A stretch of DNA of 47,307 nt, filler included, from Dimargaris cristalligena (taxonomy: Eukaryota), in assembly GCA_003614675.1 (NCBI GenBank). It is 2 parts of 2 records of this genome, joined end to end, with 100 filler letters (N's around TTAATTAATTAA, not from the genome) between each part and the next. Parts side by side here need not be neighbours in the genome. Positions count along the whole stretch, not along the records: positions 23,724 to 47,307 come from ML002607.1; 1 more part is not named here. One strand, given 5' to 3'. This document shows, piece after piece, positions 15,139 to 38,244 of the stretch; positions within the stretch are counted from its first letter, which is position 1; each line of letters begins with the position of its first letter. A program made the translations under genes and the position numbers. The notes under the pieces were generated by a model, which saw only the letters and a program-made list of their open reading frames with translations, had not been told where the DNA came from and made no database searches.

Positions 15139-17589
15139 CTAGTTATGGATATTCCAAGTGGACAGCCACTTCCGCGACGTTAATTCCTTCGCCGGATAAT
15201 CAAACCCGAAGGTGAACGGCGAGAAGTACATAAACACCGCCGCGGCCATGGCCGCGAACCCCAGAATCATTGAATCGTGGAATTTACCGTTAAACAGCCG
15301 GCGTCCGAAATGGTCCACCATGAAAGCCAGGAACAGCATGGCGAAGTAGACCGCGGGGAAATAATGGTGTAGATAGGTGACTCGGCCCATGATGAAGAAG
15401 GGGAAGTAGTGGAGGGCCCATCCGCCCCACAGCATTTTCGAGGTATGAAGGAATTGGTCCCATTCGCCGTCGGCTACGATAACGGCTTCACCAGCACCCG
15501 GTCCGCTCTTGGTGGTCGGTGGCGGAGGCGCCCAGTCGACCGATTGGTAACCGCGCACGCGGCGCACCGTGTAGTACAGGAGCAGGAAGGGGAACACCAA
15601 GAGGGCGGCCGTACTCGTCCACCAAATAAACGGATTACCCAGTAGATAGTACTTGACGCGGGCATCGTCCCAGCCGCACATACGCAGACCCAGGATCAAG
15701 AAGGGCCACTCGATGGGTTCGGAAGACAGAATATCAATCTTGTCCCGGTTGGGCACCAGCGCGTTGTTGGTCACGGCCATGGCCACGTTGAGGTGGACGA
15801 GGTCGTCCAGGAAACTCGACTTGAACATGCTGGGGGGAGCGGCCTCCAGTTTTTCGTGGCGGTGGTACTCGACGTTCCACAGGTTGGAGGTATCGTCGCG
15901 ATTCTTACGGTCGCAGGTTACTTCCTGTTGCTTGTAACCCCACTGCGGCAGGGTATCGCGGTTAGAGCGGAGTAGGCAACCCAGGCGCACGTGGCGCAGG
16001 CGGAACCGGGTGAGTAGGGAACGGATCTGGTCGGGCTTGTTGCTCTTGCCGGTCTGGACATCATCGTAGATCTCCACCTTCCAGTGGTCAAAAACATCGC
16101 CGAGGGTACGGTTTCCGTAACCGCTCACTTCGTAGTCCGTTTTGGTAACGGGGGCCTCGATGGCGTGGCTGTGCAGGTTAGCGCCGGTGTTAACATGGGC
16201 CAAACGCACAATCGATCCCTCGCGGATGTACTCGATACCTTCTTCAGGGATCTCGGGTTCGCCGTGGGGTTTAAGAATGATGAAGTTGTTGTTGTCGTCC
16301 TTGTGGCTGTAGCAAGTGATCTGCTGCTGCTTGGAACCTTCGGGATATTTGTGGGGATGAGAGTGCAGTAGACCACCGCCGCGGGGGTTGCTCTTCAGGG
16401 TCACCGTAGAGCCGAACGCGACGTTCAATGGGTTCTCCTTGAGGTTAGAACCCTGAAGCTGGGCCTGGAACAGGGAGGACATGGTGGCATCACCGGACCC
16501 ACTGCGGCGCAGGATAAAGAAATGGATCTTGAAGCAGATCATATAAATCAGGATAGGCAGGACAATGAGGCCGACAATACGACCGGTCCAGTGGTAAGCA
16601 TACCGGCGCCAGTTGAACTTCTTTTCGCCCAACATCCAGTAGAGCTGCTCGATGGTGTAGATACCAGCCAGGCTGACCACGAAGAAACCGACCCACTTGC
16701 TGCTGGACACGAGCCCCAGCGATCCACCGGTCAGCAGCAGCCACTTCCACCAGTGGAAGGAGAAGGGGTGGTGCCGTTGGTTATGGAAACCAGTCAGACA
16801 GTACAGGCTCAGGGCGGTAAAGAAGAGTAACATGGCATCCAACAGAATAAAGCGACTGATGGTGGCCAGGGCGTTATCAAAGAGCACGAACACAGCGGCC
16901 AGAATAGCGGCATTGCGGGACATCTTCAGGTTCAGGGCGGTGAAGTAGGCCAACGGGATCAGGCCCACGCCGAAGGCGGCGTTAAAGACCCGCATGACGG
17001 TGTAGTTGACGGTATCGGGGTAGTCCGCACCGGACTTGAATTCGAAATTACCGCGGTAGCCCCCCAACAGCCCGCTCAGCCCCACCAGCATCTTAGCTAG
17101 CGGTGGGTGGACATCGTGGTAGAAGGTCCCCTTGAGGTAGTGGGAGCCGAACTTGCCAAAGTGGGCTTCATCCCACACCACAAACTTACTCGCGGAAATG
17201 CGGTAGAAGCGGGTGAACATGGCCAGCAGGGTCAGAATGGTCGGGATCAGCCAGTAATCATTCTCGTACCAGTACATTTTGAGCTGGTTGGGGCGAAGGG
17301 AAGGGAGGTATCAAGGGGGGATATGGTAGGTCATTTTTCGGTGTAATTAATATGAAATTAAGGGTTAGTCAGGGGCGTAGAAATGGACAGACGGTGATGG
17401 GGGTTGGATCCAGCAGGGGCCTGTTTAAAGGTACTCAGAGTTAGATGGAGGTTAGTGCGCTAGGCTCAAGACCACTCAGTTGAGTTGACTGAGGACGGCA
17501 ATTGTATCGTTACGACCCCTAATAGCACAAGTATCATAACCTGTCTGGCGCATAGAAGCCTGGGGCCAGATGAGATTAGGTCGTCCGGA

Positions 17590-23623: not shown

Positions 23624-23723
23624 NNNNNNNNNNNNNNNNNNNNNNNNNNNNNNNNNNNNNNNNNNNNTTAATTAATTAANNNNNNNNNNNNNNNNNNNNN
23701 NNNNNNNNNNNNNNNNNNNNNNN
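23624..23723. other. Artificial contig spacer: 44 N + TTAATTAATTAA + 44 N
   Basis: Exactly 100 nt and symmetric. The central palindromic 12-mer gives TAA stops in all six frames. Confidence 0.97.
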
Positions 23724-25168
23724 GCAGTAAGGGGGAGTATTTATACTCAAAAGGGGAAGCCTAAATGAAAAGATAGATGAGTAATAGAGAAAGGGAGAGA
23801 AGGTCCCAGAATATTAGATGACTAAGCAGAGGGAAAGGAAGAGGAGTTCCCAGGTAGTAATATTAGTTATCACAAAGGATAGGTAATACCCAGGTAACCA
23901 ATAAATTCAATGTAAAACAATAGAAGGGAAAAAGTGAAAGGGATAAAGTTATTTTTAGCTATACTTTGAATAGGTGCACAGTTGGGCCAGGGGCAGTGTA
24001 AATGCAGGGTTGCAGTCTAGTCAGGGGTAGGGGTATAACTTAGTTAGGAGGATATGTAGAAAATAATATACTAATAACTTGAGATAAATTAACTATACTT
24101 GCCAGGGGTAGGGGCAGGGGCTCATTCACTTGTCAGGGACATACTTCTTATAAGTACAAAAAATAGGAAAATAATAAAAGTAGGTAAAAATATGGTAAGT
24201 TTACCACAACCTTATTACTGTGAACACCTCAGTGAATCTAAAAGTCTTAAATTTTCTGTGTAAAGTAATTTCCTTAGTCCTGGCCATTTTTCCCCTTTAA
24301 ATGAGGTTTTATAGTATTCAGTTTAACCCTAATAGTAAAACCCTGTCACCTGGGTTTACCACTCTTAGTCTATCAAGAGTCCCGGGGATAGGCTTCTAAT
24401 GGTCAGACAGGGCTTAGACTCAGCCAAGTGGGTCCTAGTATTAGGTTAAGGTATAATGCTAACTAATAAAGGATAAGTACAGGTATATGCAAGGGATGTG
24501 CAGTGGCACACTTACTAGTTAGACTAAAGGGAGGGAGTGTATATAGAGTTTATTGAGGTAAACTAGGGGGTAGGAATAAGCTAAGGAATCTAACCAGTTC
24601 CAAGGGGGCCCAGTTATATATATATATATGGGGACAACTCCAGAGGGAGGTCCCAAGGGAAGACTATGGGTAACTAAGGTATATAGTGAAAATAGGCCAA
24701 CCAGATGGCCACTGGTATCTGGAAGACTCTCATGGTAACCAGAAAAGTCTTTGGATCAGCATACTGAGTGATTAGTGCAAAAAGCTGGAGTCAGGGAGGG
24801 GAAGGGTTATATGATATAGGGTGATCCCATAGTCACCCCTAGTACTATGGGAGGGTTAATATGGTCCTATAAGGCTGAATAAGGGCAGTCAGCCTGGTGT
24901 CCAGATTAAGGTGGATTAGAAGGGCTGACACAGAATATAATGTTATCTACTAACAACCAATTATGACATATTGGATGGCACTGCATATATAAATACTTAC
25001 CCAAATAATTAAGGGAACATATATTGAGTTTTCACAATTGCCTAAAGTTAAGCATTGAATAATGACACTACAAGATGGGCTTAACAAAAGGGGTGCCAAT
25101 GCAGCAGTAAGACATGGGGCATTAGATAATGTTTAATCAAATTTAATAATGAATTATGGGGAGGGATG
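23724..25168. repeat. CpG-depleted degenerate repeat/TE relic at contig end
   Basis: Manual scan found one CpG (24383-24384) in ~1445 bp despite abundant G and C. There are no ORFs >=60 aa in the track, and CpGs resume abruptly at 25169. Repeat identity is inferred, not shown. Confidence 0.6.
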
Positions 25169-25294
25169 CGATCCGGGTTGAGATGCTACGAGGGTGAGAT
25201 AGGCTATCCGAAAAGTATGATCAACTGGGCCGTGCCTGAAACGGGCGGGGCTAAATTAAAATCAATAAAAATAATCCAACTGTATTCGAGTGGT

Positions 25295-28200
25295 CTAGGT
25301 AAGAGCGGCCTTAACCACTACAAGCTCATTAGCGTTGAGAAATTTCTCCACAAGCTCATTCAATAAATCACGGCGATTGGCTGCCAACTCTCTCAAGAAA
25401 TTCACCAGATACTCCTATAAAACATGGCAGGAAAATAGATACGATGGGACGATAATGATAATAATAGAATACAATTAGTAATTAGGAAAGGTGCGTCATT
25501 TGTAGGCCAGCTCTGAGCAAACTGAAGTACTCGTTTAATCGCGAAAAAAAAATATCCGCTGCGCAGTATCGAAATTATGTGTGCGCTAAAAGACCAGTGT
25601 ATTGTCACCTACCTTGAGGTTGAGTTGGTAGATCGGGCTCTGCTTCAGATCCTCGTCATCGTCGTCGTCATCATCGTCGCCGAAGCTATCGGCGCCGAAG
25701 TCCGCCAGGTCTTTTAAAAGCAAAATTCAATATTACGAGTAGAAAAAAAAACATGTATACGGTGAGTCCGAGTGCTCCAACAGAAATAATCCAGAATAGT
25801 TAAATACTGATAGGTAAAATAATTGAAAGTAGAGTGGCCTTACCGATCAAATCCTTGTAATCGTCAGCAGGGGCCAAAAGATCTTCGGCATCGACGTCTT
25901 CCCATTCATCATCCTAAAACGAGGGTTGCAAACAAAAAGAATGTGTGAGTTTAGGGTATAGGTGAGTACATCAGGGTAATTGGGCGATAGGCGATTATAA
26001 TCGAATAATAAAACCAGCTAAATCATAACATAAGGCAAATAAAAGGGGAGGGGCCCCAGATTTTGAAGGAAAATTAAACTTACATCGCTTCCATCGTCGG
26101 CCAGTCCGGAGAGTTTTTCAGTCTTCTTGGCTACCAGGTGATCGATATCATTCTGGATGTCAGCGATGAACAACTTGATGATTTTGGCATGGGCGGGAAT
26201 CAAAGAATACTGTTCCTTAGCTAGAGATAGCACCGTGATAACAATGGCCATGGTGAATATTGAAATAATGGTCCAACCAGGTTGGGATACCCATTAAGGT
26301 ATGCAGTGCCATCCAATGCAACAGGCATAAGAATAATAATTAGGTTAGTATGCTCATTGAAAAAAAAAAGTAAAGGGGCCAATAATAAATAGGGTACCAA
26401 AAAGGGTCTAAAATTAAATCCGAATGAGGTAAAGGAATGGGAAAATAGTGGAAGATATGCTATAGTAAAGGAAATAAATAGCTTGCCAGCAGTACTCACA
26501 ATTAGCAGTACGAGAGCGAGTCATAATCACTATAAGCGGTAATACCGAGATACAATATTAAGAGTAAAGTAACAAAGCCAGTATTGAGACATGGGTTAAA
26601 CAGATTTTAGAAAGTGGCATTGCAAATAAACGAGATCGAGGAAGTAGTATCCATTCTAGTCAGTCTCTCCCACTCATTGATACCGATGATAACTTTCCCG
26701 CGAACTAAGCGAGGTCGTAGTGGGCTATTGATACAATAACGATGGTTATAGTTATATTCAAAGACGACTTACTCTTGTTTTGTGTCACAGTAAGATCGCC
26801 CTTAACCAAGAACCGGCCTAATGCGGGTTCGGTCTCTTCCCAAAGCTTGCGCATGGCCACGGCGCTAAAATGACAACAATGTCATATTTTTAGAGAATAA
26901 AAAATAAAAATACGCCGTAGTGACCATTAATGGTTAATAAATAATAGTACTATATCTGTATGATTGCATGTGTTTCAAATCCCGGAAGGCGGTCAATCGT
27001 AATAGACTCGCTCAGAAGAAGCACAGAGAACTAAATTAAAACCATACAGCAAATCTATACAAGGCTACAGTACTTACTTGGCCTTAAGTGTGTATACGCC
27101 GTTGAAGGATTCGTACTCTTCGCACCAGCGATCAACGAGCAACTGCAGAGCCGGCCGACCTTCGATGGTGAGTCCCTGAACAACCGCCAGGGTATTTTGC
27201 GAGTCCGCGATGATCAAATGGGCCATTACCGCAATCAACGATTGGGCAAAGACGGACGTTTGTGCGCTGGCGATACGGTTCAGCACGACCTGGATCAGGC
27301 TAGCCGCATGGGGGGCCATCCAATGGTACCCCTTTTGGATGAGTTTGACGATCAAATCCCCCACAAAAAAGGAGGCGGACTCGGATTGTTGGGGCTGGAG
27401 GAGGAAGGCCACGTACTCGAGTAGGATAGCCAAGCCGGTACGCCCGGTGGTGGGATCCTCTTGCCAGCGGGCGAGATGGTCCAAATCCTTGGTGACGTAG
27501 TATTTGAAGCACTCCTGGCCGTTCTGCATAATGGCATGGTCGTCACTGCGACGCAGCAGTTGGACCAGAACGGGGAAGATTTCCTCGACATAGCCGACGG
27601 GGAGCGGGGAGGGGCCATTCCTGATCAGTTCGGACAGTAGATCGAGGGCGTTGGCCACCACGCCACCCTCCACTTCCTCCGGACCCCGGCGCATGACGTC
27701 CGTAATGAGGGGCACCACCCGGGCCTGGAAAGCACCGAAACACTGTGGGTTCGACACCAAAACGGCCAGGATATCCACAGTCAGGCTGTTGATAAGGTGA
27801 TTAGCTGGGTGTTGCTGCCACACGGTTAGAACGAAAGGGCCTAGCACAGGTTCAAGTTCGGCGGTGATGGATGCATCAATCTTCATGAGCACATATAGAG
27901 TTTCGAGAGCTACCAAGAGGGTATCAGCGGTGAACTGGTCCTGCAACCGCACAATACCCGTCAGGATGGGCCGTAGCAGGGGCCGAATTTGGTCCTTGTC
28001 GGCTTGGCGACCGAAATTATCCAGGGCCTTGAGGGCGCTAATCTTAACCGCCAAAGGGTCCGCTGACTCCAACGTCGTGGCGGCCGCCTGCAAGTACTGA
28101 ACGTTGACAGCGGGGGGCAGGATTTCACTAAACTGGCTAGTGAAAATGAATGCCCGACCGCGGGCAAATGGTTCGGGGCACTGGGCCATTTGAATGACCA

Positions 28201-30165
28201 CATGCTCAAAGAGACCCGGCAGGTCGAGGTGGACCCGGCTCCGGCTGTGCTGATAAGTTTCGATCATATCCTCAGCCGCCAGCCCAATTGCCAACAGACA
28301 GGCCTCCAGGATAACCCACCAACGGGGATCCCCGGCGGTCCGGGCCTGGGTGGCCTGGGATGCGAAATTGGGGGCTACCTGGCCAAGCACGCCCACGGTA
28401 ACGAGGGGGAACTTATCCAGCATAGAACGGATGGTATCCTGGGCAAAGGTGCGCACATTAAAGCTGAGGGACTCGTGCTCTTCGTCGGCGATAAACTGAT
28501 CAATGTCATCCTGCCAGGCCTCAGCCTGTTCCTGGGCCACCTGAAGGTACGGCACGACGGCATTCACTAATTGGATCATCGCCGGTTGGGGCTCAAGGGG
28601 CTGATTGGGGCCGGCCTTGTGGACCAAGTAGGGGCGGACGACGGTCCGGGTGATGAACTCGCTTAGGAAGTCCAGGCAAGCAACAATGTACGTTTCGAGG
28701 CTCAAATCAGCGGACTCCCCGTCGTCGGTAGACACCACCCATGATTGACCCTCCTGCGAGTACACAAATCCCTCGGTGTAGGGGGCACACAGGGTCATGA
28801 GGTCCTGGACAATCAGATCCATGATTGTAGCGACTGCGTTATTATCTTTGGGAGCAAACCGGTTGGCTACTTTGACGGCCCGTAAGACTTCTATTTTCAT
28901 GGATAGGTTGATGGAACCGGCCGGGGCATCGGGCTGGAAAACAGTCGGCTGGCGCAGATAGTGGACGAAAAGCTCCTGCCAGGAACCCAGGTAGGGTTTG
29001 ATGTAGGTATCGATGGCACCTGGACGATCCACACTTACGATGGCGAACATTTCTAAGCAGTCTTTGAATACCCCCACGGCCCGGGCGCGAGTTCCGATGT
29101 CGTGCACCTAGTCAAGGCATAGTGTCAAAATAGACGTACTCCTATAACAAGTTAAAGTTCGGCTGGGGTATTGAATAGGGCGATCGAATTAACATGTATA
29201 TATATATACATATCGAAGGAGGGTGGGTGATAGATAAGTCAGGAAAGTACATACCTGGTCCTTGGTGGCAATGGTGTAAAGTTCTGGCAAAAGCTGGATG
29301 ATTTGGTTCATTTGCTGATCGGTCATATCGCGCCTCACGAATTCGGAGTAAACGTGCATGGAGGCCTGGACCTGCTCGGGCGAGCCGCTCTTCAGAAGAT
29401 GGAGTAGGTAGTCAAACAGCTCAGGCCAGTCCTCGGGCCAGTCAAACTGGGCGATTTCTGAAATAACATAGGCCTGTGTCAGACATTTATCAACCGATAA
29501 GCAATATTAGAGTAAAAGACGAATTAGACATCGTGATATTTACTCCTTAAAAAATGGAAGAATGGTCGGATTGTGAAAGTAGCAGTCAAAAATGTCCGAC
29601 ACATAGCCCCATTTCCCTAAAATGTTGGGTATGATTATACTGTACCCGCCATTGAACTCCCCAGCTAGGCGTTCCGGCTAAGGCAGCAAGATACCAGGAG
29701 CAATGTGATCAGCAGTAAGAGCCGTATATATAAAGTGTATTCAGTCCAACTCGCCCAGCTTCCACGCTTGCCTCTTTTAATCAAAAGAATCTTTAAAAAA
29801 CCCACAGCCCAATACATATGTCTATATACAATATCACCTACCGCACCCACTCGGATTTTCTTTTCCGAATCGGACAAGCCCTCCACGATTTGTTGGCGGA
29901 TAAGCTGTTTCACCGAACCATCCAGCTCGGGTTCTTCAAACCGCTGAGCTGAGGCGGACCAGTGTTTATCGACATAATTCTTCAGCGAGAATATAGCTGC
30001 CTGGCGCTGCGGCAGGGAACACTCGGGGGCGGTCGCGCAGCGGGTTAAACTCAGAGGGAATTCGGGCTTAGGGGTCAGTTGGCGCAGCGTCAGCTCGGCC
30101 TGCATGCGAACATTGGCCTCGGGCGAGAGGGTTTGCAGAAGGCATTCGTAGACGGTCCGATCCAT
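25295..30165 (-). CDS. KAP114: Importin-9 / Kap114 (importin-beta family), 9 exons, ~1039 aa
   Basis: Exons 30165-29842, 29473-29255, 29107-27078, 26864-26773, 26529-26500, 26220-26084, 25913-25844, 25710-25613 and 25414-25295 splice in frame (3120 nt). Motifs: IBN_N domain, IAQFDWPEDWPELF, VKGDL...IMTRSR, acidic loop DDEWEDVD, and C-terminal YLVNFLRE. Confidence 0.9.
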
Positions 30166-31166
30166 GGTAGAGGTGAGAGACAAGGCGGAGCACAGTGCCG
30201 GGAGAGGAGATGGCGGAGGTAGATAGTATAATAATAATAATAATAATAGGGGAAAAGGGGGGACAGTGGAGAACGGAAATGCAAGAGTGGAGAGATAAGA
30301 ACAACGGGCAAGGGGGAGAAGGTTAATAGTCCAAACGGCCCGGGCTAAAGGGGGTTGGAGGGGAAGTGTGCAAGAAAACTGTCCAAACAGTGGCTAGACT
30401 CGAAAACAAGGAGGGGGTGGTGGTGATATAGAAAGGGCACCAACAGGTAAACAGGGAACATTAACTATGGCTGTAATACAGACTGGGGGGTTGTACTATA
30501 AACACAAACCGCAGGCCAAGGCTGGTCAAACAGCAGATGGCCTTGGGTGGCAGAGTACTTGGCTGAATATTATAAGGTGGACATTTGATATCTAGAGGTC
30601 CATCGCAACTATAAACAATGCGCCGGAATTACCCATCCCCTCTCATAATGGGCCGTGGCGGAGTTAAACAGTCGCACTTACGTATTCTAATCTACTCTAC
30701 TCTGCGAATACATCAATAACCTCAAGTCGATAGATATACTAAACCCATATTATAGAGGTGGTAATTTTGATACAATCTTTTTAGTCAACACCTACCACCT
30801 AGACTGTCCCTTTATAGTAGACTAATTACAGTCCAACTGAGACTCCATGAGACAGTATAAAATTAGTTGGTCAACCTAACCATTTTCACCCTTGTCGAAG
30901 AGGGACAAATTAGGGGGAGCTTGTCATTTCCTTGTTGCTCCAACATAGTGGCTGTCGAAAAAACGATGCCCAGCTAATCATGACATGATTGGTTGAAGAT
31001 CAACTGTATATAAACGAACAGCAAATTGAAATTTGCGCTCACTAACAACCAGGACAGCTAATTGTGGAGCGCATACCATGGCGAAAATGGCCGGGATGTT
31101 CGATGTAAGTCGATAAAGATCGGTCCGGCAAATGTATTATTGATGATATATTTAGTAGTGCTAAAC

Positions 31167-31309
31167 ATATGGGAGAAATTCATCCAAGCCGTATAACGAA
31201 AAATCCATTAGATTCGGCCAATATTATAGTTAAAAATACATTTCCCATATATTTTCCCATACACGTATAATGTAAACCATTATATAGCTGGGCCGAATTT
31301 CACCCATAT
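31167..31309 (+). mobile_element. MITE-like dispersed repeat, copy B (best-preserved TIRs)
   Basis: Left end ATATGGGAGAAATTCATCCAAGCCGTATAA versus reverse complement of right end ATATGGGTGAAATTCGGCCCAGCTATATAA: 24/30 match. AT-rich, non-coding interior; homologous to 19582-19725. Confidence 0.78.
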
Positions 31310-32067
31310 TATATATGGTCTTCAATGTCTTGATAGCCCCTGGGTTTCCACTTAAAGCCATTTTAAGGATTATATTGACTGTTATACGTAAAAAACCCGC
31401 AAATAGCTGTTGCATATGGGAGAGGCAGAGCTGATTTAAATGCTAGTTGGTATTGTCACCAATGCTGGACTATGGTTAGGTACGTTAGCCTACCCTTGGA
31501 TTCCTAATCCTACCTTCGAATGGGTGCCAACATCACTATTGTGCAAATGCAATTACAGGGAGTGGGATTAGCCATATACAAGGAACCTTTAATAATGATC
31601 CTATGTATAAGGCAATATAATTTTATTAATACAAAATTACAGGTTGAATCATCTATAATATATTTTGAGTTGTTTTCCCGGAGTCACTAATCCGAAGAAT
31701 GGTGCTTCTGTCCCTATATTAAACCCAGGGTTGCATTTATATATGTAGACTAAACGGGAAGACGCTTATCACAGTTGGCACCCGCAGACCTATTATCACT
31801 ATACCCAACAACACTTAGCCATATTCCTACAGTCTGTCTACGCATGGGTTATGCACCATCAACCAGTATCCTAAAAGGATGGTGCAATCGTAATAACCGG
31901 GGTGGGGCTACATACCTTCGGGCCAATCTGTTGTCATATAAAAATCTCTAGGAGCTGGCAGGGTGAAATAGATTCCAGACTAAATACAACCTATACGGGC
32001 ACCATAAAATTGGTACAACTAAATTTAATTTTAATAAAATTTACATTGTCAAAAGATCGACATGCAA

Positions 32068-34393: not shown

Positions 34394-37213
34394 TCACTCC
34401 GAGATGGCTTGAGCGGTTTCGCGGTTAGAAGTGGCAGATGACTCGCCCTCAGTCTCGACCGGCGCCGGTGTTGTAACTGTAACCGCGGGTTCGGCCTTGG
34501 CCACCTTCACCTTACGCGCTTTGGTGGCGGTGGTCGCCGACGAAGAATCAGAGGATCCCAACGACTTCAACACCTTGGAACTACTCCGCGAACTCGGCGG
34601 GGGAGAGGCACTATGCACCCGAAGCGATTTACTATCGAAAGCCAAATGGACCTTCCCCAATGTCCCATCGAACCGATTCTTCTGGATATCGAGGTAGCGA
34701 GTGGCGATGGCATCCCCGTACTCATTCAGTACACTGCGGGCTACTTTGCCTACCTTCTGGATGAGCACAACATTATCCGCATCTTGGGTAATCTTGGCCG
34801 ATCCAAAAATGGAATTGATATCGAGTTGGTTTTTTTCGTCGCGTTCTTTGCGGGGGTGGACGACGAGGGAAACGTGTACGTTGCATTCGGTCGCGAATTT
34901 ACGGAAGGTGTTGAGAGCCATTTCCTGGAGATCCCACTTTTCGAATCCCTTGCCCTGGCCCGTCATCATGAATTGAAGGTTGTCGATGAGGACGTGTTGG
35001 ACGTCGTAGGCGTAGACGGCGTGTTTCAAAGTATCCAGGACTTTGTCGGCTTCGGTACTGCCAAAGAATTTCAAATAATAGAGGGGAAGTTGCTCAAACT
35101 TATCGGCCCAGTACTCGAATTCGTCGGGGTGTTCACTGAGGTCCTTTTCGGCGAACTGGTACAGCATCCGTTTGGCCAGGCGGACATTGGGGATTTCGAA
35201 ACTACCCCAAAGGGTACTGACGCCGGACTGACAAAAGTCCAGGGAGAGCTGACTCAAAATGGTGGTTTTACCCACCCCCGTCGTGCCGCTCCAGATGGAC
35301 AGTTCACCGGGCCGGAGACCCTTAAGAATCGCGTTGAATTGACTGAAATCCCGGGAACTGACGCCGGCCACATCCACGGGGTGGAGGATTTCTTGGTGCA
35401 CGGCATCCCGCAGCGAGGAAAACTCGAGGATTTGTTCATGACCCAAAGGACGAGCCATATCCAAGATGTTCTGGAAAGACTGTCCTTTCATGAGGGCTTC
35501 GGACGCATTCACGGGACCACTCGCCAAACCCCCGCGGGAGGAGACAATCAGGCAGCGGTCGATGCCCAATTTATTAATGATCCGCAGGGTGGCTTCCTGC
35601 CCCTGGCGGTCGTCGTCGAGCCAAATGTAGATGCGGGAGAACCGGTCCAGGCTACGCATTTCCTCGAGGGGGAGTTGATAGGAGTTGGCGGGAAGGGCCA
35701 TGCTAACCATTCCCGTTTCCTGGTGGGCGACCATGGCGTCCAGTTCGCGGCCGGTTAGGATCATGGTATCGGCGTTGGTGGGGGCGAGGTGGAAACCAAA
35801 CAAACCGGACTGGCAGTTACGGACGGGGTCGAACACGACGTGCTTATCCTCGGGGAATGAGACGGCCTTGAAACGGGTGACTCGGAATTGGTCCTGATCT
35901 AGTTCGAGGGCTTCTGAGTCGGGTGATGAAGGATTCGCTAGTTCCGCTTCGAAGGCCGCCGTGGGCTCGGTAGACTCGGCAACTTCCGTGGCGCCGGTAG
36001 GACTGGTCGGGGCGGCGGCTGTTTTGGCATTGGGCCGGCGCTTTACTCCCTTTACGTTAGAGTCGTTTAGGGCCGTGCGGGGGTATACTATAAAAGGGTA
36101 AACGTCCCGTTCCCCGTTGGCCTCCAAATCTTCCAAGGTGTCGGTCATTTCATCGCGGCTGAAGGACCGGTGCGAATGAATAGCATCCCTTGCCGAATCA
36201 ATGGTAGCGGGGTTGGTGTTGAGATAGGTCAAGCCGACTAAGTACTTGCGCAGGGTCTCGGGTTTCAAGCGACGCTGGCCTGGTTCGTGACCGGTAAGGT
36301 AGCCATAAACCACCGAGTTTTGGGATAAGTTATGGCCGTAGGTTTGGAAATCTCCGAGGGGTCGGTCGAACGGGCCAGTCCCTGAAACCGTTTTAGTTTG
36401 ACCATCACTGTCGGTGACCACGACTTGGCTTACGGATTCGATATGGAAGTGGGGGTTCTTTCCTACCAGGGATTTGTACTGGGACCAAGTGCCGCTGGTC
36501 AGACACTTGGTGCACGTGAAACTACCGGATTTCTTATCCAGATGGGCGGTATAGTTGTGCCGTCCCAGGCGCGGCGGACACTTGGGGCACTTGACCAGGA
36601 GTTCGTTTTCCTTGGGACCCTGGCGGGGGTTCTGGCCCATTTTGTGGAGTTGGTTGTACATTGTAGCCAACGACACCATGGATCCTCCGCCGCTGGAACT
36701 TGCATTATTATTTCGCCGGGCCCGGGCGGCTGAGTCAGTAGCGACGTAATCCACTTTCTTGGGGGTTATGTTGGTGCCCGTTGTTGATTTTACCTTCAGA
36801 AATCGAACTTTTGATGAAGCCGATTTCGATTTCGCTGAAGGTCCGCTAGATGGCTTTTTTGGGGCAGCGGAGCCTTCCCCCCGGTAGTCATCGGTGGGGG
36901 GAATCATTGATTCGTCGAATGGCCTGGCTTCGAAAGTAGCCTCATCGGTTATTTCGTCCATATCTATGGGAGGGGCCGTGATAATGGATTTCTCGGATTC
37001 TTTGAAATCGGGGGCCACTTTATCGATAATCGAGGCTATGGACCGGAGGGACAGTTGGCCAAAGTGGGAAGTTGAGGGCATCCAAAGGCCGGTTCGATTG
37101 ACACGCATGCGGGAAACGGGGCCGGCGGCCGTCCGACCACGAAGACCGTTAACCTGGCCATATATGGTTGCTGATACCCGAGAACCAAGTAAACGAGTGA
37201 TCATGGTGGGCAA
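34394..37213 (-). CDS. TWNK: Twinkle-like mitochondrial primase-helicase (T7 gp4 family)
   Basis: Arg-rich presequence-like N-terminus, CPKC...CTKC zinc-binding motif, TOPRIM-like segment (LTGRELDAM, WLDDD), and SF4 helicase motifs SGTTGVGKTT, GSFEI, IDNLQF, VVHPRK, IFGSAKITQDADNV and KNRFDG. Confidence 0.92.
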   Translation of the reverse strand: MPTMITRLLGSRVSATIYGQVNGLRGRTAAGPVSRMRVNRTGLWMPSTSHFGQLSLRSIASIIDKVAPDFKESEKSIITAPPIDMDEITDEATFEARPFDESMIPPTDDYRGEGSAAPKKPSSGPSAKSKSASSKVRFLKVKSTTGTNITPKKVDYVATDSAARARRNNNASSSGGGSMVSLATMYNQLHKMGQNPRQGPKENELLVKCPKCPPRLGRHNYTAHLDKKSGSFTCTKCLTSGTWSQYKSLVGKNPHFHIESVSQVVVTDSDGQTKTVSGTGPFDRPLGDFQTYGHNLSQNSVVYGYLTGHEPGQRRLKPETLRKYLVGLTYLNTNPATIDSARDAIHSHRSFSRDEMTDTLEDLEANGERDVYPFIVYPRTALNDSNVKGVKRRPNAKTAAAPTSPTGATEVAESTEPTAAFEAELANPSSPDSEALELDQDQFRVTRFKAVSFPEDKHVVFDPVRNCQSGLFGFHLAPTNADTMILTGRELDAMVAHQETGMVSMALPANSYQLPLEEMRSLDRFSRIYIWLDDDRQGQEATLRIINKLGIDRCLIVSSRGGLASGPVNASEALMKGQSFQNILDMARPLGHEQILEFSSLRDAVHQEILHPVDVAGVSSRDFSQFNAILKGLRPGELSIWSGTTGVGKTTILSQLSLDFCQSGVSTLWGSFEIPNVRLAKRMLYQFAEKDLSEHPDEFEYWADKFEQLPLYYLKFFGSTEADKVLDTLKHAVYAYDVQHVLIDNLQFMMTGQGKGFEKWDLQEMALNTFRKFATECNVHVSLVVHPRKERDEKNQLDINSIFGSAKITQDADNVVLIQKVGKVARSVLNEYGDAIATRYLDIQKNRFDGTLGKVHLAFDSKSLRVHSASPPPSSRSSSKVLKSLGSSDSSSATTATKARKVKVAKAEPAVTVTTPAPVETEGESSATSNRETAQAISE

Positions 37214-38244
37214 TGGACTCGGACAGAGTATGAAACTACGAAACTAACAAAATATATATAGACGAAGCAGCTGGAAAAAGGTGCAACGATAGCAGGTGGA
37301 ATGTCGTGTCCAAGTGACGTCGATCGAGGTGCACAGTAGAAAGGCCGGGAGGGGTAAATTAGGAATAAACAGGAGACCTGGCCAAAGGGGGGTCGATATG
37401 CCAACAGTGAAATCAGCCGGGGGGCCAAAGCGAGCAGGGAGGGGGGAAAAGACACGGGCTGCAATAGTAGCACTGGAGAAGGCACGGTCTCGATAAACGA
37501 AGCCGTCGATAAACGGGCCGGACGGAGGGAGAGGCTTTGGTAGAGTTAAAGTAAATTGCGAATGCAGTAGCCAAGTCAACTACAGTTAAGGCAGAGTGGG
37601 TGGCGCCCGCAGTCCAGCACTGGGCGGAGTATTTAATGAGAGGGCCTGGCTATTTTTTTTTCTATAGTGTGTAACCACCACCGCACTTTGGGTGTATGCG
37701 AGACGTGGCTCTATCGTAAATTAGCGCGTATTTGGTGGGCCTCCTTAACTATTCCAGCCGCTTAATCAATCTTGGACACCCCGTCCACACGGCTCAATGG
37801 CATTACACTATTTATCCCTCGTTGATTCGCAAATGCCCGGATGGCCACTATTACTACTGCCATGGGTCCATAGTTGGTCACGTGCCTATTGAACCAGGGG
37901 GAAACGAGCGGAGGAAGGAGGCAGAGACTCGAATGGCCTGCCTGGGTCAACAAGGTGTGTGTGTGTGTGTATGGCTGTAATGCCTTCGGGCTGAGTCAGC
38001 CCAATCTCCTACCCTTCGTTAATTGACGGTAGTAGACTCTGTAGCCTCATCCCGTCCTGACACACTGGCATATAGTGTCCATCTGCTTCCTTCTTACTTT
38101 CCCACTTCATTTGCTTCACTTTCAACACCAACCCTCCCCTCTCATCCATTCCCTTTTTCTTGTACGATTTTTCCATCTCCGTAACCCCACCTTCCGTTTC
38201 CCAACCCCACTTAGCCCTTGTCGTCTCTCTCGCTCAGCCGCGCC

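Follow-up and report, generated by a model that had tools for sequence, protein, structure and literature searches.

A CpG-decay footprint around LTR-like repeats in Dimargaris cristalligena

Background

Transposon copies decayed by C-to-T change with a CpG signature have been described in fungi carrying a lone DNMT1/Masc2 methyltransferase (Microbotryum, Melampsora and Puccinia), and also in Tuber melanosporum. The excerpted text of PMC4352252 reads this signature as methylation followed by deamination, and reports that lone-DNMT1 genomes display CpG decay only, with no CpA component. In the portions of PMC11258239 and PMC8647823 considered here, CpG 5-methylcytosine (5mC) is restricted to repeats in Phycomyces and Linderina, and repeat-restricted 5mC in Rhizophagus goes with low mCG at short and at old transposable element (TE) loci. 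A Dim2-dependent mitotic mutator in Zymoseptoria tritici converts CpA to TpA in TE regions while sparing CG (PMC8016269, in excerpt), and MIP in Ascobolus immersus acts on LINE and LTR repeats that exceed a minimum size (summary of PMC13297926).

Here we analyze a tract nearly devoid of CpG in Dimargaris cristalligena (GCA_003614675.1), contained in a 47,307-nt stretch of DNA referred to as the window. The original prediction interpreted the tract as the footprint of a CpG-specific defence process in an early-diverging fungus, where such systems were said to be poorly described. Placement of the host seems correct: it would belong to Dimargaritales within Kickxellomycotina, an early-diverging group, as judged from an O-mannosyltransferase (15139-17310) with 69–73% identity to Dispira, Tieghemiomyces and Dimargaris proteins and ≤55% to others among the matches listed. 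The claim of poor description does not stand, since decay with a CpG signature in lone-DNMT1/Masc2 genomes and 5mC confined to repeats in early-diverging fungi have both been published (PMC4352252, PMC11258239 and PMC8647823, each in excerpt). A search of the open-access literature returned no report of a CpG-decay footprint in Dimargaritales. The present analysis extends a known footprint to this little-studied order, and its new elements are a two-step fit, a strand test, a MITE control and a miscall by the composite RIP index.

The locus is like those of Microbotryum and the rusts in showing C-to-T change at CpG in transposon copies and a DNMT1 with RFD and BAH domains, with no RID or DIM-2 found among the candidates from its own genome (PMC4352252, in excerpt). 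It differs from these and from Tuber, as presented in the same excerpt, in that the host belongs to Zoopagomycota rather than Dikarya, 98% of sites are gone, and a halo in single-copy flanks was measured; the TpCpG preference of Microbotryum does not occur here. Tuber combines CpG with CpA decay but has RID and DIM-2 (PMC4352252), whereas here CpA is a second target in a genome in which no RID was found. Targets and enzyme class are the same as in Phycomyces, Linderina and Rhizophagus, and Linderina lies in the same subphylum, but in the excerpted accounts of those fungi the mark itself was measured, whereas our evidence is the mutational scar alone. The Zymoseptoria mutator likewise produces C-to-T change in TE regions, including CpA to TpA, linked there to the Dim2 methyltransferase (PMC8016269, in excerpt); here, in contrast, CpG is hit first and DNMT1 alone was found. 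LTR repeats are hit as in Ascobolus MIP, but MIP, as summarized, methylates without mutating and needs Masc1, and no Masc1/RID was found here.

As in RIP of Neurospora and other Pezizomycotina, repeats bear a load of C:G-to-T:A change and a gain of TpA, short repeats, here the 143-bp MITEs, are spared and the effect spills into flanks. Changes in Neurospora-type RIP are clustered and strand-coordinated. The process at this locus is not RIP: a RID/Masc1 gene, CpA as main target and strand clustering were each tested, and none was found; CpG is the main target and decay is graded.

A nearly CpG-free tract next to an importin gene

Base composition predicts 50.8 CpG in 23724-25168, but a single one occurs, at 24383 (o/e 0.02; whole window, 0.90); the tract contains 40 GpC. 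The CpG-free gaps within it measure 786 and 782 nt, the latter counting the linker in, and no other gap in the window exceeds 187 nt. Even taking 60% of expectation, the probability of one CpG or none is 1.8e-12, so the predicted depletion is confirmed as real. Other dinucleotides give an o/e of 1.18 for CA and 0.77 for TG, TpA/ApT of 1.29 (0.89 elsewhere) and (CpA+TpG)/(ApC+GpT) of 1.01. The tract and its borders comprise the following features.

23624..23723, no strand: artificial 100-nt linker joining two contigs, with N runs at 23624-23667 and 23680-23723
23724..24208, plus strand: LTR-like repeat A, 3' 485 bp, truncated by the contig start; 0 CpG, 13.9 expected
24209..24346, no strand: single-copy spacer within the halo, 138 bp; 0 CpG, 3.5 expected
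24347..24931, plus strand: solo-LTR-like repeat B, 585 bp, TG...CA with short inverted ends; 1 CpG, 26.9 expected
24383..24384, no strand: sole surviving CpG, an ancestral CpG site of B; in 39 copies CA 20, TG 9, CG 5, TA 5
24932..25168, no strand: single-copy tail, a 237-bp halo of CpG loss past B; 0 CpG, 6.0 expected
25169..25294, minus strand: CpG-normal stretch, presumably the importin-9 3' UTR; 8 CpG, 6.3 expected
25295..25414, minus strand: open frame ending in a stop, presumed to be the final coding exon of importin-9 with its stop codon

In the window, the linker joins contig C399 (1-23623) to contig C400, of which the tract is C400:1-1445. Its supposed start at 23724 is therefore artificial and not biological, being base 1 of C400; because contigs are numbered by size, C399 and C400 need not adjoin, and this apparent boundary need not be the tract's own left extent. 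The right edge was read correctly as a sharp return of CpG about 125 bp past the importin stop: 25169 lies 126 nt from the stop (25295-25297) of a minus-strand open frame, with all eight CpG in between. That this frame is the last importin exon is suggested by importin domains (importin-9 and IBN_N) at 27074-29107 and 29665-30393, upstream in the gene; the 39-aa last-exon piece had no PDB match. The 126-nt stretch would then be 3' UTR, and the right edge of the halo would fall at its border.

Two studies supplied four runs whose contigs span the internal junctions A-spacer-B and B-tail-gene, with the tail joined to the gene in runs X2, X3 and X5. The tract is thus not a chimera, with the proviso that the best-matching bridging runs may be the source sample itself. 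At 26309, 26310, 26314 and 24404, three of the four runs share the same difference from the window, and these positions are probably errors in the reference. Run X5 additionally lacks 31 bp at 24096-24128, a gap bounded by short direct repeats. A 36-nt inverted match (78%), which may be due to chance, links the tail (24970-25005) with 26282-26317, in the 187-nt CpG-free stretch of the importin gene. Farther along the window, a 949-aa ORF on the minus strand (34394-37243) combines Toprim with DnaB-like helicase domains, and we take its product to be a Twinkle-like protein.

Repeats and single-copy DNA within the tract

Repeat A is about 590 bp when whole, with TG...CA ends, and has 50 matches in its own genome; the best 40 of 382 candidates were scored and show 76–94% identity. 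Its copies share a sharp 3' end, and most matches sit at contig ends. This position and the retention of up to five of nine CpG sites in some copies hint that the family was recently active. Repeat B has 1098 candidates in its own genome (best 40 scored, 73–87% identity) and displays the features of a solo LTR, namely TG...CA ends, fixed length and a 4–6-bp target-site duplication in 20 of 39 copies, the 5-bp flanks agreeing at ≥4 of 5 letters in those 20 of the 39 full-length copies. The copy in the window lacks such a duplication (1 of 5 letters agrees), and its 36 CpG-type sites include 10 TG, 13 CA, 8 TA and 1 CG. Among 30 reverse transcriptase (RT) loci, pieces of B occurred in two and pieces of A in two, none demonstrated as the own ends of an element, and no full-length gag-pol parent of B between two LTRs was demonstrated among these loci. 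Nested insertions are common, with B found within A and A within B. A MITE variant accounts for an eight-letter resemblance of the C399 end to repeat A.

The spacer and the tail each match only themselves in their own genome (E≤1 and E≤0.1, respectively), although absence of matches does not prove rarity. No CpG remains in the two combined, where 9.5 would be expected (p=0.0013 with the expectation set at 70%). The original prediction overlooked this component, single-copy DNA that makes up about a quarter of the tract and was erased through spreading.

Spread around repeat B and genomic targeting

CpG o/e rises with distance from B, at 0.04, 0.10, 0.16, 0.25 and 0.35 per successive 100 bp over the first 500 bp; MITE flanks have 0.62–0.89. 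CpG recovers in 48 of 78 B flanks at a median of 428 bp (range 54–1771, inflated by nearby repeats), and the other 30 stay below normal CpG as far as the sampled DNA extends. Lone B copies in gene-dense DNA have short halos on both sides (233 and 380 bp at locus L017; also C2:8776-9700). At locus L009, one member of the target-site pair has TG where its partner has CA, indicating that a host CpG was present at insertion and decayed afterwards.

CpG deserts were counted in a 447-kb sample and in 169 kb of MITE-centred loci. In the 447-kb sample, deserts make up 11.3 kb; B occurs in all nine, and all nine B matches lie inside deserts (7/7 once this tract and a contig picked for bearing B are excluded). 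Three of the four deserts in the MITE-centred loci contain B. No repeat was matched in desert L088 among the loci sampled; its 650-bp CpG-poor stretch (L088:226-875, on contig C290), which matches neither A nor B nor any other sampled locus, resembles decayed coding DNA. Depletion is limited to repeat neighbourhoods, and ordinary DNA and genes are spared, which removes the concern that ordinary DNA might be equally depleted. Two RT matches on contig C55 (L186 and L188; GC 0.28–0.32) keep their CpG (o/e 0.68–0.77) and are possibly mitochondrial intron genes.

MITEs and longer repeats as controls

Two miniature elements (MITEs) in the window serve as internal controls.

31167..31310, plus strand: 143-bp MITE; 5 CpG kept, flanks with CpG; best 40 of 1017 candidates scored
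19584..19726, minus strand: MITE of a second subfamily, on contig C399; 3 CpG

The ends of the 143-bp element are GGG...CCC within ATAT duplications, and about 1000 candidates exist in its own genome, where a search for a Harbinger-type transposase (PF13359) as autonomous partner gave no match. Because 52 of 86 copies were top matches to CpG-bearing queries and were dropped, counts refer to the 34 untargeted copies. Outside deserts, 28 such copies hold 74 CpG against 125.5 expected (o/e 0.59); within deserts, six copies hold 1 against 21.7. The earlier statement that MITEs keep their CpGs is thus right for most of these CpGs but not for all. Youth was considered as the cause of retention and rejected, since nine old copies outside deserts (≥8% from the nearest relative) still hold 30 CpG against 47.1 expected. 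Losing CpG in deserts and keeping it outside, MITEs are passengers rather than seeds, depleted only within halos.

A length threshold had been suggested as possible for the process, and a minimum repeat length is a trait of RIP. Age does not remove the sparing of the 143-bp MITEs, but several repeats of 335–2100 bp are spared as well: those of 335, 414 and 422 bp retain CpG, as does a tandem pair of about 2000 bp with 70–84% identity (91/103 and 102/103), and an 802-bp repeat retains half. A plain length threshold is therefore not demonstrated, since length is inseparable here from element class or copy number.

Mutation spectrum and order of change

Dinucleotide states were tallied column by column across 39 B copies, which are top matches to a decayed query; young copies, which would tend to break contigs, are probably missing. 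The 1366 cells at CpG-type sites comprise 28 CG, 552 TG, 526 CA and 260 TA; about 98% have lost CG, a loss near saturation. Erasure of CpG is thus linked to repeats and driven by transitions, as had been predicted. In the main subfamily (15 of the 39 copies, 33 sites, grouped by transversions), the counts are CG 10, TG 210, CA 175, TA 80 and other 17, with CG left in 10 of 475 cells. C-to-T change in the same copies affects 148/660 CpA (22%), 47/1229 CpC and 58/1212 CpT (about 4% for the latter two), and T-to-C change 86/4060.

Expressed as a per-cytosine hazard, these counts give 1.93 for CpG and 0.25 for CpA, an order that bears out the earlier view that this is not classical Neurospora CpA RIP. 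The CpG hazard is about 44 times that of CpC/CpT and 90 times that of T-to-C, and the CpA hazard 5.7 and 12 times, respectively; subfamily differences raise the background rate estimate, which derives from old, assembled copies. CpA is a slower second target of decay. "CpG-specific" is accordingly apt for the main target but too narrow, with CpA decaying about six times faster than CpC/CpT. Likewise, CpA is still frequent as a count, as had been stated, but it too is decaying, and its number stays high because decayed CpG supplies it.

A sequential model, in which an initial change at CpG is followed by decay of its product at the rate of native CpA, predicts TA at 17.5% of changed sites, and 17.2% was seen; concerted hits on both strands are unneeded as an origin of CG-to-TA change. 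Along 30 B copies, TG and CA follow each other at random (406 of 788 neighbours alike; null 395±12, p=0.18), and per-copy strand bias is absent (p=0.39). A Microbotryum-type preference for a 5' T (TpCpG) was rejected, the first-hit share being 0.55 after T, 0.55 after A, 0.52 after G and 0.46 after C. Across copies of the main subfamily, TA share shows no correlation with native CpA decay (rho 0.04, p 0.90), and in two six-copy groups rho is 0.28 and 0.74.

Decay seems to be still in progress. Repeat A retains 28 of 199 CpG-site cells, 30 of 80 RT matches have a CpG o/e of 0.05–0.86, a graded decay, and related copy pairs give the same order of change (CpG, then CpA, then others). Six positions inside the tract distinguish run X5 from the window. 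Four of them are CpA/TpA (binomial p=0.054, weak), including two in the single-copy tail (24965 and 24998) and one at the former CpG site 24439, which is CA in X5 and TA in the window; the difference at 24047 is a change of another kind. None of the four X5-only differences outside the tract is CpA/TpA.

Methyltransferase and repair genes

The suggested methyltransferase search was borne out in part. A PF00145 search of the own genome gave two candidates, a DNMT1 and a second gene that, by motif, is presumably DNMT2-like; neither is a RID/Masc1 or DIM-2, in an assembly that is fragmented. DNMT1, on contig C729, has RFD and BAH domains and the catalytic PCQ motif, and its best PDB matches are DNMT1 (136 bits). 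The gene leaves the contig at about residue 1436 (numbered on an 1875-aa relative); its C-terminal part is absent from contig C730 and was not found by protein search of the own genome, and relatives have a complete DNMT1. The Dimargaritales proteins (P0121, P0122 and P0124; 1742–1875 aa) are longer than most fungal relatives listed and showed no additional Pfam domain. Among two PF03167 candidates, no TDG/MUG-type T:G glycosylase was recognized, a weak negative. An AT-rich 2-kb contig (locus L221, C2211:1-2017) carries a uracil-DNA glycosylase ORF adjoining a 454-aa ORF that, in our assumption, resembles a D5-type primase-helicase; it is possibly a giant-virus-like fragment within the assembly.

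Origin of the footprint

The tract is probably explained by DNMT1-type methylation seeded by a retroelement, with short spread and later deamination of 5mC. Insertion of the element would seed a small silenced domain, within which a DNMT1-type enzyme would methylate CpG heavily and CpA lightly. The domain would reach into host DNA for a few hundred bases, halting at the next active gene, with transcription setting its edge. 5mC would then turn into T singly, on either strand and with little repair, apparently through spontaneous deamination, so that CpG would yield TpG or CpA first and, more slowly, TpA. Several results weigh against this reading. The 44- to 90-fold CpG excess may be more than spontaneous chemistry alone can give, DNMT1 is read only to residue ~1436, TA share and CpA decay are uncorrelated per copy in the main subfamily, and desert L088 matched no repeat among the loci sampled. 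The vertebrate CpG excess is roughly 10-fold, well below the one seen here. The CpG-only decay of lone-DNMT1 genomes in PMC4352252 also counts against it, as CpA is hit here too.

The size of that excess would also suit an active mutator, in which DNMT1 or a partner assists the deamination of CpG and CpA in vegetatively growing cells, with the same targeting. Loss of CpA would then continue once CpGs are gone, as the CpA/TpA differences of run X5 in CpG-free DNA suggest, although one of the six, at 24047, is of another kind. The failure to recognize a TDG/MUG-type glycosylase among the PF03167 candidates is weakly in its favor, but lost repair would account for the excess with no active enzyme, and the ratio itself hangs on a background taken from old, assembled copies. 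The Dim2-dependent mitotic CpA mutator of Zymoseptoria is a precedent (PMC8016269, in excerpt), but it spares CG and hits CA; the order is reversed here, as spontaneous 5mC decay would give. We regard an active mutator as improbable. Conceivable, if still unlikely, is a RID- and DIM-2-independent mutator defence of Dimargaritales, in which the long DNMT1 would be recruited by retroelement chromatin, need no remaining CpG, raise C-to-T change ~90-fold at CpG and ~12-fold at CpA, spread, and still act between isolates. If true, this would be a mitotic analogue of RIP outside Dikarya, and may be what RIP indices detect in other Zoopagomycota.

We give less credence to a RIP-like process that senses homology at the sexual stage, with no RID and a CpG preference, and leaks into flanks. 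C-to-T change near saturation in repeat neighbourhoods, sparing of short MITEs and the raised TpA/ApT of the tract would suit it, as would the high RIP indices of Zoophthora (PMC11105155, in excerpt), and many weak rounds could blur runs of strand-coordinated change. However, clustering by strand is absent from the 30 B copies, single-copy flanks are as bare of CpG as the repeat, decay is graded by age, and neither PF00145 candidate is a RID-type match. The 2-kb tandem pair also keeps its CpG, though it is possibly too diverged to count, and repeat-enriched RIP k-mers are almost confined to ascomycetes (PMC12543289, in excerpt).

It is very unlikely that the halo is not caused by the LTRs, these having entered DNA already poor in CpG, or the flanks being old repeats below detection. 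Nested insertions, the 30 B flanks that do not recover and desert L088 could be read in that manner, but the short two-sided halos of lone B copies in gene-dense DNA, the decay after insertion at L009 and the single-copy state of spacer and tail contradict it. A chimeric, contaminant or amplification-damaged sequence, for which the contig junction at the left edge and the three probable reference errors near 26310 might be cited, can be dismissed, because the CpG-free sequence, likewise linked to the gene, recurs in contigs of two studies, with the right-hand junction ruling out a chimera, and dozens of copies repeat the site-wise pattern.

Implications for RIP indices and repeat defence

The analysis quantifies the footprint through context-dependent rates, halo size and a route to TpA in two steps, with MITEs as internal control. 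The composite RIP index, taken in its familiar form, is +0.28 for the tract and -0.17 for the rest of the window. The rule of a composite index above 0, applied to Entomophthorales in the excerpted text of PMC11105155, would therefore call RIP here despite CpG being the main target and no RID being found among the PF00145 candidates. This miscall implies that RIP-index claims outside Dikarya can stem from decay of CpG to TpG and CpA to TpA, and site-wise alignment of copies is a direct test of where such an index comes from. If the excess at CpG were proved to be enzymatic, it would represent a new route of repeat mutagenesis.
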